Assembly (NCBI GenBank): GCA_001824825.1
Contig: MHTK01000004.1
Location: 1 to 61,503 of the forward strand
DNA: 61,503 nt
DNA from: Candidatus Vogelbacteria bacterium RIFOXYD1_FULL_46_19
Lineage (GTDB): Bacteria > Patescibacteriota > Minisyncoccia > Phycocordibacterales > XYD1-FULL-46-19
Direction of reading: 5' to 3'
Shown here: in pieces, positions 5,679-41,475 of the stretch
Layout of the letters: each line of letters starts with the position of its first letter
Position numbering within the stretch: position 1 is the stretch's first letter
The notes under the pieces: generated by a model
The model's input: only the letters and a program-made list of their open reading frames with translations
What the model was told of the DNA's origin: nothing
Database searches by the model: none
Translations under genes and position numbers: made by a program

Positions 5679-5750
5679 GGCCTGGTGGCGAAGTGGTAAC
5701 GCAGCGGTCTGCAAAACCGCGATGCGCGGGTTCAATTCCCGCCCAGGCCT
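5679..5750 (+). tRNA. tRNA-Cys(GCA)
   Basis: GGCCTGG acceptor / CCAGGCC, anticodon arm GCGGT-CTGCAAA-ACCGC, T loop GGTTCAATTCC; CCA not encoded. Confidence 0.95.
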
Positions 5751-5777
5751 CAATAAATTTATATATAATTTAATAAT

Positions 5778-5850
5778 GCCCTGTTAGCTCAGTTGGCCCG
5801 GCCCGCAACGCCTGAGCAAGCTCTAGACTAGCGATGGCGGGCGAGTAGAA
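5778..5850 (+). pseudogene. tRNA-Lys 5' fragment with a palindromic insert at the D loop
   Basis: GCCCTGTTAGCTCAGTTGG is identical to 6015-6033, followed by a 48-bp GC-rich insert and GTAGA; no 3' half. Confidence 0.85.
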
Positions 5851-5900
5851 ATTTAAACAAAAATATGATGACATAATTTGACAAATTTTAGTTTTATAAT

Positions 5901-5956
5901 GCCCTGTTAGCTCAGTTGGCCCGCCTGCCATTGCTACGCTTCAGGCGTTAGTGGGC
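5901..5956 (+). pseudogene. Second tRNA-Lys 5' fragment with the related palindrome in the opposite orientation
   Basis: Same 19-nt tRNA 5' end, then CCCGCCTGCCATTGCTACGCTTCAGGCGTTAGTGGGC. Confidence 0.85.
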
Positions 5957-6014
5957 ACAAGATAGTTAACAACTTAGTGATCAATGATACAATAGTGAAA
6001 ATTTAATCTTATAT

Positions 6015-6087
6015 GCCCTGTTAGCTCAGTTGGTAGAGCAGTCGCCTCTTAAGCGAACGGTCGCAGGTTCGAATCCTGCACGGGGCA
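6015..6087 (+). tRNA. tRNA-Lys(CTT)
   Basis: GCCCTGT/ACGGGGC acceptor, TCGC-CTCTTAA-GCGA anticodon arm, GGTTCGAATCC. Confidence 0.95.
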
Positions 6088-6120
6088 CAAAATAAAAACG
6101 CCGTTAGGCGTTTTTATTTT

Positions 6121-6426
6121 GTGCCCCGTGAGCAAGCCAACTGCTTGGCTTGCGGTCAGGATTCGAACACCGGAGTTATGTTTGGTAAGCTTGCCAAACA
6201 AACGAGGTGGTGCCCAGACCAAAGTGAGTGGCGACGAGCTTTGAGTCGCGGGAGAATCCTGCCCCTAACTGCTTTGGTCGTGTGCAGGATTCGAAGAGGC
6301 TAAACATATCGCAGTGATCCGCCTTTGGCGGAGAAACGAGATGTGAAGCCTGTACCGTTCCCGCCCGCCTGCCATCGCCTGCTGGCTTAGGCGCTGGCGG
6401 GCAGGTAGGGGGAGAATCCTGCACCA
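6121..6426 (+). repeat. Two tandem tRNA-anchored structured mini-elements (class B then class A) tailored to tRNA-Lys
   Basis: CAGGATTCGAA...GAGAATCCTG arms repeated twice around conserved cores. Confidence 0.85.
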
Positions 6427-6512
6427 ACTGCCGGACGACTTTAAGACTTAGTAAGCAAAACAATAGCCCAACTTTTTAAAATATGGTAGCATCTAGAATG
6501 TTAACAACTAAA

Positions 6513-6594
6513 GCCCGGGTGGCGGAATTGGTATACGCGCACGACTTAAAATCGTGTCTCGAAAGGGATGCGGGTTCGATTCCCGCCCCGGGCA
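6513..6594 (+). tRNA. tRNA-Leu(TAA)
   Basis: GCCCGGG/CCCGGGC acceptor, CACGA-CTTAAAA-TCGTG, long variable arm. Confidence 0.95.
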
Positions 6595-6612
6595 CCTGTT
6601 ATTTGAAAGACC

Positions 6613-6696
6613 GCTGGAGTGGTGAAATTGGTAGACACGCAGCGTTCAGAGCGCTGTAGGGGCAACCCTATGGAGGTTCAAATCCTCTCTCCAGCA
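6613..6696 (+). tRNA. tRNA-Leu(CAG)
   Basis: GCTGGAG/CTCCAGC acceptor, CAGCG-TTCAGAG-CGCTG, long variable arm. Confidence 0.95.
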
Positions 6697-6723
6697 CACG
6701 TTTCGCTGTAAGCAAAAGATAGA

Positions 6724-6850
6724 GTGGTGGAGAAGCGACTGAACTGCTTCCGTCGCGTGAGAATTTGAAAGACTTTTCGTTGCCAAGCACCTGGTAAAGA
6801 TGACTTGGTCGAAAAGTACCAGCCCCCGTAGGGGGAAAGTCCTCTCTCCC
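6724..6850 (+). repeat. tRNA-anchored mini-element (class C) tailored to tRNA-Leu(CAG)
   Basis: GTGGTGGAGA..GAGAATTTGAA antisense arm, ACTTTTCG..CGAAAAGT stem, CCCCC-GTA-GGGGG, AAGTCCTCTCTCC sense arm. Confidence 0.8.
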
Positions 6851-6894
6851 GAAGGAAATAAACAAAGCGTAGGTTTTCAACACAAAAAAAATAT

Positions 6895-6976
6895 GCCGGG
6901 GTGGCGAAATTGGTAGACGCACTAGCCTTAGGAGCTAGCGGAGCAATCCATGGAGGTTCAAATCCTCTCCCCGGCA
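6895..6976 (+). tRNA. tRNA-Leu(TAG)
   Basis: GCCGGGG/CCCCGGC acceptor, CTAGC-CTTAGGA-GCTAG, long variable arm. Confidence 0.95.
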
Positions 6977-6992
6977 CAAAATTGAAAATTTT

Positions 6993-7126
6993 GAGCCGGG
7001 AACAAGTAAACTGCTTTACTTGTGGGAGGGGATTTGAAGAGGTTGATCATGTTGCAGTGAGCGGAGCGAAACGAGACGCGAAACCTGTACAGATTCCGTA
7101 GGAATCGAGTCCTCTCCCCGGCACCA
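6993..7126 (+). repeat. tRNA-anchored mini-element (class A) tailored to tRNA-Leu(TAG)
   Basis: GGAGGGGATTTGAA antisense arm, AGGTT..AACCT-GTAC, GATTCC-GTA-GGAATC, sense copy TCCTCTCCCCGGCACCA. Confidence 0.85.
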
Positions 7127-7191
7127 GTAGTAACTTGTTTGGCACCCTCCACTCCCCTTTTTAAGCCTTAAATCGAGGCGGATTTTTATCG

Positions 7192-40131: not shown

Positions 40132-40195
40132 ACGATTTATTAACTTATGAGTACACAGTTGATATCAGACTATTTTAGCATATTTAGGAGTTTTA

Positions 40196-40472
40196 TGCCC
40201 TCGGCAGGAATCTCCCCCAACGGGGGCTGGTATTTTTCGTCTCGCTCGCTTGGTAAAGCTCACTCTCATCGAAAAACCATTCGATTCCTGACGCAAAACA
40301 AGCCCTAAAGCCATCCAGCACGGAGTAGGCCAGTTGTTTTACCTAACTCGGCAGGAATCTCCTTCGACTCAAAATTTGGCCGTTGCCAAATTTTGGTCTA
40401 GGCACCCCCTCGCGCCAAAATTCTACTGAATTTTGACTTCGTGCGCTCCGGCGTTCGATTCCTGCCGAGGGC
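40196..40472 (-). repeat. Two tandem tRNA-anchored mini-elements (class B at 40347-40472, class C at 40196-40292) tailored to tRNA-Arg
   Basis: CAGGAATCGAA ... AGATTCCTGCCGAG arms twice; cores CCGGAGCGCACGAAGTC.. and TTTTTCG..CGAAAAA-TACCAG-CCCCC-GTT-GGGGG. Confidence 0.85.
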
Positions 40473-40521
40473 TACAAACCAATAGTCGCAAAATGTATCC
40501 ACATTTTGCTCGTTTGTTTTG

Positions 40522-40593
40522 TGCCCTCGGCAGGAATCGAACCCACATTAATCCCTTAGGACGGGACTGTTCTATCCATTGAACTACGAGGGC
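40522..40593 (-). tRNA. tRNA-Arg(CCT)
   Basis: GCCCTCG/CGAGGGC acceptor, TCCC-GTCCTAA-GGGA, GGTTCGATTCC. Confidence 0.93.
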
Positions 40594-40669
40594 GGAATTA
40601 ATTAAACAAACAGGATACCCAAGTTCGGTATCCTGCTCATTTTGGCACAAGTTGCGACTTTAAGAAAGA

Positions 40670-40906
40670 CTACAAGCCAAGGGCGGAGCGAATACCACTC
40701 TCATCGAAACCGACAATGATTTGATCATCAATCATAATCACCGGCACACCCATCTGACCGCTTTTTTCTACCATCTCTCGGGCTTTAGCCTGGTCGACAG
40801 CGACATCATACTCTTCAAAAGCTACATTATTAGTCTTGAAAAAGTCCTTAGCCAAATGGCAAAAGTGACAAGTCGGCGTAGTATACATAACTACTTTTTT
40901 ATCCAT
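40670..40906 (-). CDS. Glutaredoxin-like protein (NrdH/YruB type)
   Basis: YTTPTCHFC CxxC, SGQMGVPVI, IVGFD. Confidence 0.92.
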   Translation of the reverse strand: MDKKVVMYTTPTCHFCHLAKDFFKTNNVAFEEYDVAVDQAKAREMVEKSGQMGVPVIMIDDQIIVGFDESGIRSALGL

Positions 40907-40939
40907 AATAAGTAAGCAGATTTAGTATTAATGGGGCTA

Positions 40940-41233
40940 TTATAGCACACCCTCCAAGTAGGCTGAAATATCATCCTCCCGGCTGGTTTTATTGGGTTTT
41001 TCATAACCACAGTCTAAACAACGGTGAAGTACTACAAAACTCTCTCCGGCCTTTGATAGAGCTTCCGGGGCCATGAGACCCCCACAGACGGCCGCTCGGT
41101 CTCCCGGATTGACATCAACATGCTTGCTCCACAGGCAGTGGGGGCAATGGTTGGTATAGCCATTACCCTCGACCAGCTCCCTGCAATGCTCGCAAGTAAA
41201 ATCTTCTTGATGTTTGATGAAATTTTGGGCCAT
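40940..41233 (-). CDS. RNHCP-domain protein
   Basis: FTCEHC, YTNHCPHCLWSKHVD..PGDRAAVCGGLM, HRCLDCG. Confidence 0.9.
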   Translation of the reverse strand: MAQNFIKHQEDFTCEHCRELVEGNGYTNHCPHCLWSKHVDVNPGDRAAVCGGLMAPEALSKAGESFVVLHRCLDCGYEKPNKTSREDDISAYLEGVL

Positions 41234-41425: not shown

Positions 41426-41475
41426 ACTACTAAAACATACTCCCTCGAACCGGCAGTTCGAGCTCCTTGTTTTAG

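Follow-up and report, generated by a model that had tools for sequence, protein, structure and literature searches.

Two tRNA genes in the window, by which we mean the whole 61,503-nt (61.5-kb) stretch analysed from an ultra-small groundwater bacterium, are each followed by two stacked units of different core class. Read in the direction of the tRNA, a class-B and then a class-C unit follow tRNA-Arg(CCU), and a class-B and then a class-A unit follow tRNA-Lys(CUU). We consider it somewhat probable (roughly 0.55) that these units are gene-less structured elements of ~100-170 nt from a family found in Patescibacteria (CPR) downstream of tRNA and tmRNA genes, and that the two-unit stacks are small arrays generated by successive Campbell-type recombination at direct repeats, with the new unit placed tRNA-proximally in the case that could be polarised. 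The direct evidence consists of presence/absence and order polymorphism in near-identical strains, the position of the extra unit, the eroded 5' parts of distal units, sequence deleted between cores of the same class, and conservation and covariation in the core structure.

The array at tRNA-Arg(CCU) (= CCT) extends over 40196-40593 on the minus strand. The tRNA gene that serves as its platform (40521-40593) was called by ARAGORN and by the Rfam tRNA model (59.4 bits). It is followed by the trailer of the proximal unit (40473-40520), recognised in the sequence as an A-rich run, a hairpin GCAAAATGT/ACATTTTGC and then GACTATTGGTTTGTA; a similar trailer type is found at tRNA-Arg(CCT) units of another genus (L019). 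The 5' arm of unit 1 is a continuous mirror (reverse complement) of ~20 nt, running from tRNA position 73 to 53 (40453-40472; inverted repeat and k-mer annotation), and inverted repeat I1 at this locus has 30-nt arms that are 87% complementary. Next come the class-B core (40360-40452), for which alignment and folding gave the invariant motifs CCGGAG, CGAGG, GGTGCCTAGACC and GAGTCGAAGGAGA and two variable hairpins, and the unit 1 sense arm GATTCCTGCCGAG (40347-40359), located by repeat analysis as a spare, truncated tRNA 3' strand between both units. The junction (40291-40346; strain alignment) contains TTAG and an AACTGC-type hairpin, HP1 (GTAAAACAA/TTGTTTTGC), whose CTGC loop carries 28 extra nt; this 28-mer has a single occurrence in the genome. 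Unit 2 starts with a T-arm mirror CAGGAATCGAA as its 5' arm (40280-40290), with the acceptor-end mirror absent before it. It continues with the class-C core (40213-40279), composed of a long hairpin (TTTTTCG..CGAAAAA), TACC and a GC hairpin AGCCCCCGTTGGGGGA, and closes with a full-length sense arm GATTCCTGCCGAGGGCA (40196-40212), beyond which the flank is common to all alleles. Four copies of the 13-mer GATTCCTGCCGAG occur in the 61.5-kb window, all at 40200-40538 (three in the same orientation, one inverted), compared with 0.06 expected by chance; 0 of 100 shuffles reached four.

The second array lies on the plus strand at 6015-6425. Its platform, the tRNA-Lys(CUU) (= CTT) gene (6015-6088; ARAGORN and Rfam), is followed by a palindromic, terminator-like trailer with the acceptor-end mirror (6089-6130; inverted repeat I1), and the tRNA 3' end and trailer form a perfect 24-nt inverted repeat (6079-6102/6107-6130). 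Here HP1 (GCAAGCCAA CTGC TTGGCTTGC; 6131-6156) splits the mirror between tRNA positions 65 and 64, and the T-arm mirror of unit 1 lies behind it (6157-6168; inverted repeat I8). The class-B core (6169-6253; row WINp6208 of the B alignment) and a truncated sense arm GAATCCTGCCCC (6254-6265), diverged past position 65, complete unit 1. The junction holds only the loop and right half of HP1 (TAACTGCTTTGGTCGT; 6266-6281; direct repeat D4). Unit 2 has a continuous mirror of positions 67 to 54, GTGCAGGATTCGAA, as its 5' arm (6282-6295; inverted repeats I4 and I13), a class-A core with a large GC-rich apical hairpin (GAGGCTAAACATATCGCAGTGA..GAAACGAGATGTGAAGCCTGTACCGTT; 6296-6413) and a sense arm GAATCCTGCACC (6414-6425), and is followed by a further AACTGC motif (6426-6431). 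Related A cores are present at other places in the genome. The part-by-part annotation agrees in coordinates and class calls with the first-pass annotation, which had assigned class B then class C to tRNA-Arg and class B (6121-6262) then class A (6282-6426) to tRNA-Lys. Its statement that each unit has its own tRNA-matched arms also held, with the refinement that sense-arm identity to the tRNA starts at about position 60/61; the preceding two to four T-loop letters often differ and track the core class.

Each unit is a module closed by a hairpin, one arm repeating the 3' strand of its tRNA in inverted and the other in direct orientation, and we found no plausible ORF inside the units. Folded with the arms as closing helix, three of the four units were far better than shuffles, with z = -7.6 (Arg-B), -5.2 (Lys-B) and -6.4 (Lys-A); the truncated Arg-C stretch was no better than shuffles (z = -0.6). 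Sense arms of 12-18 nt occur after every core. The class-B core was examined in an alignment of 60 distinct, diverged B units and has invariant junction letters and covarying helices, with at least five Watson-Crick variants in the helices. Its 56 copies with an upstream tRNA are distributed over 26 anticodons, and the T-arm mirror fits the upstream tRNA in 52 of the 56. Cores B, C and A have no alignable architecture in common, save a terminal GTAC-hairpin module of A and C. The topology of a complete unit is tRNA-like: there are acceptor-like and T-like helices, HP1 replaces the D and anticodon arms, and the core replaces the T loop. Stacking in the same genome was also detected at tRNA-Arg(TCT), tRNA-Arg(GCG), tRNA-Asn(GTT), tRNA-Gln(TTG) and tmRNA.

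Such properties might be expected of RNA modules that serve the host and are made with the tRNA, as processing signals, terminators or 3'-end decoys, in which case turnover of the units would reflect relaxed or shifting selection. The invariant junctions and covarying helices of core B, the folding, the tRNA-like topology and the 140 nt left unchanged at tRNA-Arg(CCU) where the flanks differ by 3.6% are all consistent with this idea. On the other hand, 100 of 157 orthologous tRNAs are free of units and copy number ranges from 0 to 7 within one genus, so the units are dispensable; distal units are eroded, and unrelated classes sit in one stack. We regard a host function of this kind, predicted from sequence features, as unlikely. 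The unrelatedness of the cores also bears on whether the second unit could be an in-place duplication of the first that later diverged. Same-class tandem copies do occur in L101, L021, G014 and G051, but the stacked cores in the Arg and Lys stacks are non-homologous, which contradicts duplication, and the B unit is missing in close strains, making this explanation highly improbable.

Comparison of metagenome contigs at strain level revealed two alleles at tRNA-Arg(CCU). The B+C allele is found in the window, L031, L032, L034 and L038 (and partly in L036), i.e., in at least five assemblies; here B separates the tRNA from a C that is truncated at its 5' end. A C-only allele follows the identical tRNA gene in contigs L033 and L037, from two independent assemblies, and its unit C is complete, with a palindromic trailer, an acceptor-end mirror TGCCCTCGG, an intact HP1 with CTGC loop, T-arm mirror, core and sense arm. 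Among groundwater assemblies, ERZ28563735 (SAMN03842448) and ERZ27249449 contain the C-only allele, and ERZ27254749, ERZ27254847, ERZ909580 and JGI 3300009031 contain B+C. The sequences part left of the HP1 loop. Beginning with the right half of this hairpin they are identical, and they remain so into the gene that lies downstream; the class-C cores show 100% identity. The difference is not a clean insertion: besides the added B, the B+C allele has lost ~45 nt and has in its HP1 loop the 28 extra nt that are missing in the C-only allele. Flank mismatches were 9/1080 between the window and L033, 4/1696 between the window and L032, and 10/281 between L037 and all others. Since the C-only allele occurs in the outlier and in a close strain, midpoint-root parsimony makes B a gain and the C-only state the older one. 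Two contigs, L034 and L035, are mosaics: over Grx-tRNA-B they match the window without a difference, and past that point they are ~27% diverged; the strains therefore recombine, and the C-only allele could have moved between backgrounds. Contig L035 had appeared to be a B-only allele, but its Arg(CCT) B unit is joined across ~20 shared nt to the B remnant behind tRNA-Arg(GCG), and at 1.3x coverage it is either a true inter-locus recombinant or an assembly chimera. In Arg(CCT), the single well-rooted case, the extra unit B thus appears to have been added on the tRNA-proximal side. As B lies between the tRNA and the older C, whose 5' part is lost, the sense arm is best read as a displaced spare tRNA 3' strand, comparable to an attR-like direct repeat.

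The first-pass annotation had proposed iterative acquisition in which the sense arm of one unit is the landing site for the next. Acquisition itself is supported by the C-only and B+C strains, by the Arg(TCT) variants described below and by the presence of 0-3 units in 60 relatives, and unit number and order, which might have been fixed, vary both across strains and across relatives. The landing site fared less well, as B in the sole polarisable case adjoins the tRNA and is not placed beyond C. If arrays grew outward from the sense arms, the proximal unit would be the oldest and distal units would never have had an acceptor mirror, so that its absence there would be explained by construction; because a sense arm has the sequence of the tRNA end, it could also act as a target, and an equally good one. 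A B unit located between two copies of the C-core 3' end in L073/L163 can be read as an insertion at the sense arm of C. Nevertheless, what varies between strains at tRNA-Arg(CCT) is the proximal unit, a C unit that landed distally would not be expected to have the palindrome, acceptor mirror and intact HP1 seen in the C-only allele, and the flank tree would demand at least three independent C insertions with identical junctions. Moreover, distal units in L019 and L126 come with a complete 3' end, a trailer and a full-length mirror of their own. Outward growth therefore has a low probability in our estimate. As for polar addition, it agrees with the tRNA-proximal position of the extra unit at Arg(CCT), the one rooted case; at Arg(TCT) the varying unit is likewise proximal, with no order assigned to the alleles.

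The tRNA-Arg(UCU) (= TCT) array is on a contig other than the window's. The alleles in L210 and of the G000 type have flank mismatches of 0/2620 and 4/758, and their proximal units differ, being an intact A in L210 and an intact C in the G000 type, each of them accompanied by a separate palindrome, acceptor mirror and HP1; assembly ERZ5996431 contains the Arg(TCT) variant. Both alleles include the block C-junction-A2, with a difference of one SNP. L210 is missing ~190 nt that lie between two GAAGCCTGTAC repeats belonging to A-type cores; here same-class cores recombined out the intervening sequence. The alleles resemble one (A-C) period in two different phases, a pattern that favours unequal recombination over simple addition; L210 comes from a low-coverage assembly (2.1x), and no order was assigned to these alleles. 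Breakpoints at the two polymorphic arrays are blurred by the ~45-nt loss and by rearrangement. Strain contigs were identical at the Lys array, the tmRNA locus, the Val/Ser cluster, Glu/Ser and Val(GAC), giving no further polymorphism, and no empty-versus-filled pair was found among the strain-level contigs compared. In a filled/empty comparison at the genus level (L003 vs L016) the flanks were too diverged for alignment. An apparent 155-nt difference in L211 proved to be a scaffold gap of Ns.

These alleles raise the question of whether a dedicated insertion process is needed at all. Unequal homologous recombination of single-unit alleles through direct repeats of 13-70 nt in the tRNA 3' strand, trailers or shared cores, with DNA supplied by other strains, might suffice. 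The repeats reach past the tRNA end, comprising 68 nt in L101/L118, the native terminator in L122 and ~230 nt at tRNA-Asn; at Arg(TCT) the alleles resemble a repeated A-C period in two phases, together with a deletion mediated by repeats; classes and their order vary, with B,C here and C,B in L073; and mosaic contigs exist (L034 and L035). This route, however, leaves the origin of single units and of arms matched to 26 anticodons unexplained, repeats of 13-20 nt are short for RecA, and the mosaics could be assembly chimeras, L035 joining its two B units over ~20 nt at 1.3x. We hold it to be possible, though on balance doubtful.

Among 60 family- or order-level relatives, orthologous tRNAs carry 0, 1, 2 or 3 units, with variable class and order: the 157 tRNA genes comprised 100 with no unit, 43 with one, 13 with two and one with three. 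The HP1 signature gave 0-11 matches per genome. Of the 14 arrays listed, of which that at tRNA-Leu(CAG) is spurious, 10 have an acceptor mirror in the proximal unit; all 15 distal units lack one. In arrays of other genomes with full-length repeats (L019, L021, L122 and L126) a full displaced 3' end with its own trailer and mirror precedes each distal core, giving the architecture tRNA5'-[3'end+trailer+mirror+core]n-3'end. The 68-nt block of L118 is perfect in its proximal copy and mismatched in the distal one, and distal units reduced to a 3' remnant were found behind tRNA-Arg(TCG) (L090/L141) and behind tRNA-Arg(GCG) of this genome.

Returning to the favoured model of displaced 3' ends, a full element would comprise a tRNA 3'-strand copy (the living gene end in the proximal unit), a trailer, a mirror, either continuous or split by the AACTGCTT hairpin, and a conserved core, which may belong to class A, B, C or a further class. 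The sense arm would be a displaced former tRNA 3' end. Arrays would grow by successive Campbell-type recombination at direct repeats of the tRNA 3' strand and, as suggested by the polarised case, the new unit would enter beside the tRNA and push the older unit outward. The displaced palindrome, made up of the old 3'-end remainder, trailer and acceptor-end mirror, would no longer have a living tRNA end and would then be lost, presumably by deletion, leaving only the proximal unit complete. Same-class neighbours would recombine and delete the intervening sequence, which would be one reason why surviving stacks mostly mix classes. The agent could be a trans-acting site-specific recombinase or ordinary homologous recombination with DNA from other strains; the single tyrosine recombinase of the genome, its sole Phage_integrase match, is encoded on another contig (C2:105268-105786), far from all arrays. 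The model gives no account of the strong core conservation or of how arms come to match a new tRNA. At tRNA-Val(GAC) the two arms differ from each other over positions 57-64, and for such arm/tRNA mismatches the model needs frozen arms or a later change of the tRNA.

In a more speculative reading, the units might form an integron-like, nucleic-acid-guided cassette system on CPR tRNA/tmRNA platforms, in which the unit folds as ssDNA or RNA, the mirror directs insertion beside the cognate tRNA, the core (a new ribozyme) or an unlinked host enzyme carries out insertion, and units, at times with gene cargo as at tRNA-Asn, are added, shuffled and lost tRNA-proximally. Mirror and sense arm would together rebuild the duplex of the tRNA 3' end, and the 21-nt mirror spans the T-loop junction as an internal guide would. 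A core that changes tRNA would have its arms re-templated, as suggested by related B cores at tRNA-Arg(GCG) and tRNA-Arg(CCU). We give this scheme as a whole, including the guide role of the mirror, little likelihood.

Reverse transcription was considered as a source of the mirrors and rejected: an RT is present in 24 and HP1 in 29 of 61 relatives, both together in 12 against 11.4 expected; an RT is missing from the unit-rich G003, G021, G036 and G058; and the letters reproduced in the mirrors are those of the genomic trailer instead of CCA. An IS110/bridge-RNA type of mobility was dismissed, as there is no DEDD transposase in the genome, and a phage vehicle was discarded after the class-B pattern gave 0 matches in a viral contig collection.

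Stacked tRNA mini-elements of this kind are apparently undescribed. At gathering score Rfam 15, whose models cover self-cleaving ribozymes and group I/II introns, matched only the tRNAs; up to E = 5 it matched nothing in 40150-40530, and in 5750-7160 only tRNAs and chance-level sequences. A search of the literature (full text and one recent preprint) found no description of such elements. Their closest analogues are tandem tRNA/tmRNA islands, together with cis-mobilizable elements at such genes, and integron arrays, and they qualify as members of neither. A T-loop sublocation at tRNA integration sites is said to have been described by Williams in 2002. Like islands, the units leave the gene intact, have a direct repeat of the gene 3' end as border and a junction at or near the T loop, accumulate in tandem downstream, vary between strains and may lack an integrase of their own. 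The ssrA islands of Dehalococcoides are an example of tandem islands at a tRNA/tmRNA-type gene (PMC3146451). Unlike islands, the units are 100-170 nt long and gene-free, contain an inverted target copy and a conserved covarying core, serve 26 anticodons with one core class and have no linked cognate integrase.

In integrons, an attI platform receives attC-bounded cassettes that recombine as folded single strands, and entry is platform-proximal. The units are likewise small and co-oriented though unrelated, are bordered by imperfect inverted repeats able to fold, and differ in content and order by strain; in the one polarised case, Arg(CCT), entry appears to have been next to the platform. In the tRNA-Asn array, two units even enclose 3.4 kb of co-oriented ORFs, a cargo that has direct repeats of ~230 nt around it and contains no recombinase domain. 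The likeness to cassette accumulation noted in the first-pass annotation is therefore apt as an analogy, but no defining part of an integron is present: there is no intI beside the arrays, the units normally contain no ORF, the platform is a tRNA gene, and the arms copy the neighbouring tRNA and vary by locus with no shared attC core (R''/L''-L'/R', GTTRRRY).

The units resemble MITEs, REP/REPIN sequences and IS200/IS605-derived PATEs in being short, non-coding, hairpin-forming and multi-copy, with a load that varies among related genomes. They differ from these in lacking both common terminal inverted repeats and a short target duplication, in lying behind tRNAs with matched arms (52/56 B units) and in having cores conserved like functional RNAs. 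A further comparison is with mobile ribozymes and their guide segments, namely the internal guide sequence of group I and the EBS of group II. The mirror has the form of an internal guide, being reverse-complementary to the intact junction at positions 53-73, and the cores again have conserved junction nucleotides and covarying helices. No group I or II core was detected with Rfam, however, and a complete 3' end precedes the element, so that the tRNA needs no splicing.

CPR genomes are 0.5-0.9 Mb in size and otherwise poor in mobile DNA. If the units are what they seem, these genomes hold tiny non-coding structured elements that recognise tRNA/tmRNA 3' ends, leave the gene intact and form arrays that differ within a population. 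The strain alleles turn a static oddity into a testable process, with before and after states for one event that point to change at the tRNA-proximal end. This bears on how a constant core gains arms for many targets, on programmable targeting with no known protein partner, and on tRNA genes as recombination hot spots of reduced genomes. Annotation is affected as well, because predictors of tRNAs, terminators and islands can be misled by the stacked mirrors and spare 3' ends, which also break metagenome assemblies. Finally, a folding-strand test based on G-U versus A-C asymmetry gave a weak signal, 11 against 5 in well-aligned pairs.

The genome that holds the window is 708 kb in size and consists of 8 contigs, the window being contig C4. 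Behind each of tRNA-Arg(CCT) (40521-40593, minus strand) and tRNA-Lys(CTT) (6015-6088, plus strand), both located by ARAGORN and Rfam, two modules were found when read in the tRNA direction. All four have the same layout: a mirror, which is the reverse complement of the T-arm/acceptor 3' strand of the tRNA, is followed by a core and then by a sense arm, a direct copy. Four copies of the Arg 13-mer GATTCCTGCCGAG are present in the 61.5 kb, all inside 340 nt, against a chance expectation of 0.06. In comparison with shuffled sequences, three of the four units close by their arms as a helix (z = -5.2 to -7.6). The cores are of three designs, unrelated to each other. Class B runs from CCGGAG through a hairpin to CGAGG-GGTGCCYAGACC, a second hairpin and GAGTCGNRGGAGA; class C consists of a long hairpin, GTACC and a GC hairpin; and class A reads GAGGCTGAAC..CGCAGTGA..GAAACGAGATGTGAAGCCTGTAC followed by a hairpin. 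The order outward from the tRNA is B, C at tRNA-Arg and B, A at tRNA-Lys, in agreement with the stacking described in the first-pass annotation.

A complete unit, for example the one proximal to tRNA-Lys, has five parts past the end of the tRNA: a palindromic terminator-like trailer; an acceptor-end mirror, which carries the trailer palindrome into the tRNA (a 24-nt perfect inverted repeat in the proximal Lys unit); HP1, a hairpin whose loop AACTGCTT is fixed; a T-arm mirror; and the core with its sense arm. Searching with the HP1 signature gave 83 matches in 29 of 61 relatives and 2 control matches. Sense-arm identity to the tRNA starts at about position 60/61, and the few T-loop letters preceding it track the core class. 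The second unit of the Arg and Lys stacks alike is devoid of the palindrome and the acceptor mirror; in the second Lys unit the left half of HP1 is missing as well. In the Lys array the final sense arm itself stops short at position 67; directly past it the HP1 loop motif AACTGC appears again (6426-6431), perhaps as a vestige of a third unit that has been deleted. Two additional copies of an AT-rich leader plus tRNA-Lys nucleotides 1-19 are present at 5778-5956, each leading into a GC-rich hairpin that resembles the apical one in the class-A core (6357-6408); these copies are piled up 5' of tRNA-Lys.

Strain contigs (n = 9, from independent groundwater assemblies) were retrieved by exact match to the glutaredoxin gene adjoining tRNA-Arg(CCT), and their alignment revealed two alleles behind one identical tRNA. 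In the C-only allele (strain loci L033 and L037) unit C is complete: the tRNA is followed by AAATAAAAGCCACG-TTTAT-CGTGGTTTTTATTTG, the acceptor mirror TGCCCTCGG, HP1 (GCAAAACAA-CTGC-TTGTTTTGC), the T-arm mirror, core C and the sense arm. In the B+C allele (the window, L031, L032, L034, and L038), B sits between the tRNA and C, and C has neither palindrome nor acceptor mirror and carries 28 extra nt in its HP1 loop. Starting with the right half of HP1, the two alleles are identical across core C and the sense arm and into the downstream gene. At least two assemblies back each allele, and the alleles are therefore not an assembly artefact. Flank mismatches amount to 9/1080 between the window and L033, 4/1696 between the window and L032, and 10/281 between L037 and all others, so that the C-only allele is present in the outlier (L037) and in a close strain (L033). 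Given this distribution and midpoint rooting on the flank mismatches, we concluded that C is the older unit and that B was gained on its tRNA-facing side. This is the sole case that could be polarised, and as an addition beside the tRNA it does not support the proposal that the sense arm of one unit serves as the landing site for the next.

The 28 extra nt of the B+C allele (GCCTACTCCGTGCTGGATGGCTTTAGGG) lie within the CTGC loop (40303-40330); the C-only allele does not have them, and they occur nowhere else in the genome. Loci L034 and L035 match the window at 100% identity over a segment that begins 538 nt upstream of tRNA-Arg (window 40594-41131, starting inside the RNHCP gene) and continues through the glutaredoxin gene, tRNA-Arg, and unit B; upstream of this segment the two loci are ∼27% diverged with a third-codon pattern. 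These mosaics are either recent cross-species segment recombination or assembly chimeras. At the tip of the tRNA-Gly(CCC) trailer hairpin (window 41451-41454), L033 differs by four letters comprising the loop and the first stem base (AACTGCCGGTT to AACTAATAGTT), with identical surroundings.

A second polymorphic array was found behind tRNA-Arg(TCT) on contig C2, where locus L210 (a 2.1x assembly) and the type in the source genome show 0/2620 flank mismatches upstream and 4/758 downstream, but have different arrays. The source-genome array consists of a complete C, an A-like unit, and a C remnant fused to an A fragment; that of L210 consists of a complete A, the shared C, and the A-like unit. 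The palindrome and HP1 of the complete A both differ from those of the source-genome type, and the shared C is now without palindrome, acceptor mirror, and HP1. Within the limits of a 2.1x assembly, the alleles again change at the tRNA-proximal unit, which is complete in both. About 190 nt that lie between two copies of GAAGCCTGTAC, a repeat in A-type cores, are missing in L210, showing, in this same 2.1x assembly, that same-class cores recombine with each other. The odd junction GATTCCCGATGTGTGTAAAGGAAYCGAA is found in both arrays at different places, and the arrays therefore resemble two phases of an A-C period.

Further stacks occur elsewhere in the genome. Behind tRNA-Arg(GCG) (C2:39846-40373, tRNA included), an intact class-G unit precedes a class-B remnant that is truncated at its 5' end and whose sense arm has decayed. 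This remnant and the new B at tRNA-Arg(CCT) have P3 hairpins that are ∼89% identical, but different arms; thus one B lineage served two Arg tRNAs, and cores move between tRNAs within a lineage. Behind tRNA-Asn(GTT) (C6:176980-180974), a D+C stack is followed by 3.4 kb with five co-oriented hypothetical ORFs, in which we found one WG repeat and no recombinase domain, and then by a fossil tRNA-Asn 3' end and a complete class-C unit. A block of HP1, core C, and the sense arm plus 65 nt of terminator is directly repeated on either side of the 3.4 kb, with the hairpins within the core swapped. The locus is an array carrying gene cargo.

Among 60 family- and order-level relatives, tRNA-Arg(CCT) carries no unit in ∼16 genomes, one in 5, two in 2 (this genome and L019), and three in 1, and the unit classes vary between these genomes. 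tRNA-Lys(CTT/TTT) is bare in most relatives and followed by a single D or C unit in some; in L073 it carries C then B, the reverse of the Arg order in the window. Of 157 tRNA genes, 100 have no unit, 43 one, 13 two, and 1 three. Unit number and order, whose fixity had been named beforehand as the observation against iterative acquisition, are thus clearly not fixed among strains and relatives, and iterative acquisition is supported. In the listed arrays, the acceptor mirror is present in 10/14 proximal units (one, at tRNA-Leu(CAG), being spurious) and 0/15 distal units. A metagenome scan with the B-core pattern returned at least 118 stretches. Among the matches listed, 56 B copies have an upstream tRNA (26 different anticodons), and the T-arm mirror fits that tRNA in 52 of them; B is first in ∼50, takes second place in L122 and L163, and has other units behind it in L101, L118, and L126. 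In L019, L021, L122, and L126 each distal core is preceded by a full displaced 3' end together with a trailer and a mirror belonging to it, from which the general architecture tRNA5'-[3'end+trailer+mirror+core]n-3'end-flank follows; such displaced ends have been lost from the Vogelbacteria stacks. In L118 the distal copy of a 68-nt block is decayed and the proximal copy perfect, in L122 the repeat extends into the native terminator, and distal units are cut down to the 3' module in L090/L141 and behind tRNA-Arg(GCG) in this genome. Identical HP1-plus-mirror blocks are repeated 236 nt apart in relative G014 (C13:14326-14589) and 158 nt apart in G051 (C4:74653-74838); these are same-unit tandem duplications like that of L101.

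The most likely origin of the arrays is Campbell-type recombination, occurring time after time between directly repeated copies of the tRNA 3' strand. A unit entering at the living gene would supply a fresh 3' end along with a trailer and a mirror, and the old end would be pushed outward as the "sense arm". Long palindromes are unstable, and the displaced one, holding no functional tRNA end, would therefore be deleted, so that only proximal units remain complete; the deletion end points vary from position 64 to 69 across four stacks of this genome. Since same-class neighbours delete each other, surviving stacks would be biased to different classes. The model does not explain core conservation or how a core gains arms for a new tRNA. 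The crossover could be made by a trans-acting recombinase or by homologous recombination involving DNA of other strains; that the homologous route plays a large part is favoured by the long repeats, by the phase shift between the Arg(TCT) arrays, and by the L034 and L035 mosaics. One tyrosine recombinase (C2:105268-105786, 334-aa frame) and one reverse transcriptase (C6:198460-199071, 335-aa frame) are the only ones of their kinds in the genome, which has no IS110 transposase; across the 61 relatives the presence of reverse transcriptase is independent of that of units.

The nearest described behaviour is that of islands and cis-mobilizable elements accreting at tRNA/tmRNA genes. An example is provided by Dehalococcoides, whose tandem ssrA islands have 20-bp copies of the ssrA 3' end as boundaries and are inserted in the T loop (PMC3146451). 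Integron arrays offer the nearest analogy for small folded units entering platform-proximally. Membership in either group was rejected: the units have no integrase/intI and no attC core, and their arms are copied from the target. MITE, REP, and PATE membership was rejected on the lack of common termini and dispersed sites. No Rfam 15 family matches the units and literature searches returned no description of such elements; the family appears to be undescribed.

An alignment of 60 distinct B units shows invariant junction letters and five Watson-Crick variants of helix P1, and the Y and R positions of the search pattern covary (CG 41, UA 16, UG 2, CA 1). Together these constitute the signature of a selected fold, of RNA or single-stranded DNA. 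In the closely related metagenomic arrays L090 and L141 at tRNA-Arg(TCG), the 5-bp stem under a GTA loop is wholly swapped (TTCCC/GGGAA vs. AAGCT/AGCTT) within nearly identical neighbouring sequence, and a hairpin replacement of this kind also distinguishes the two class-C units at tRNA-Asn.
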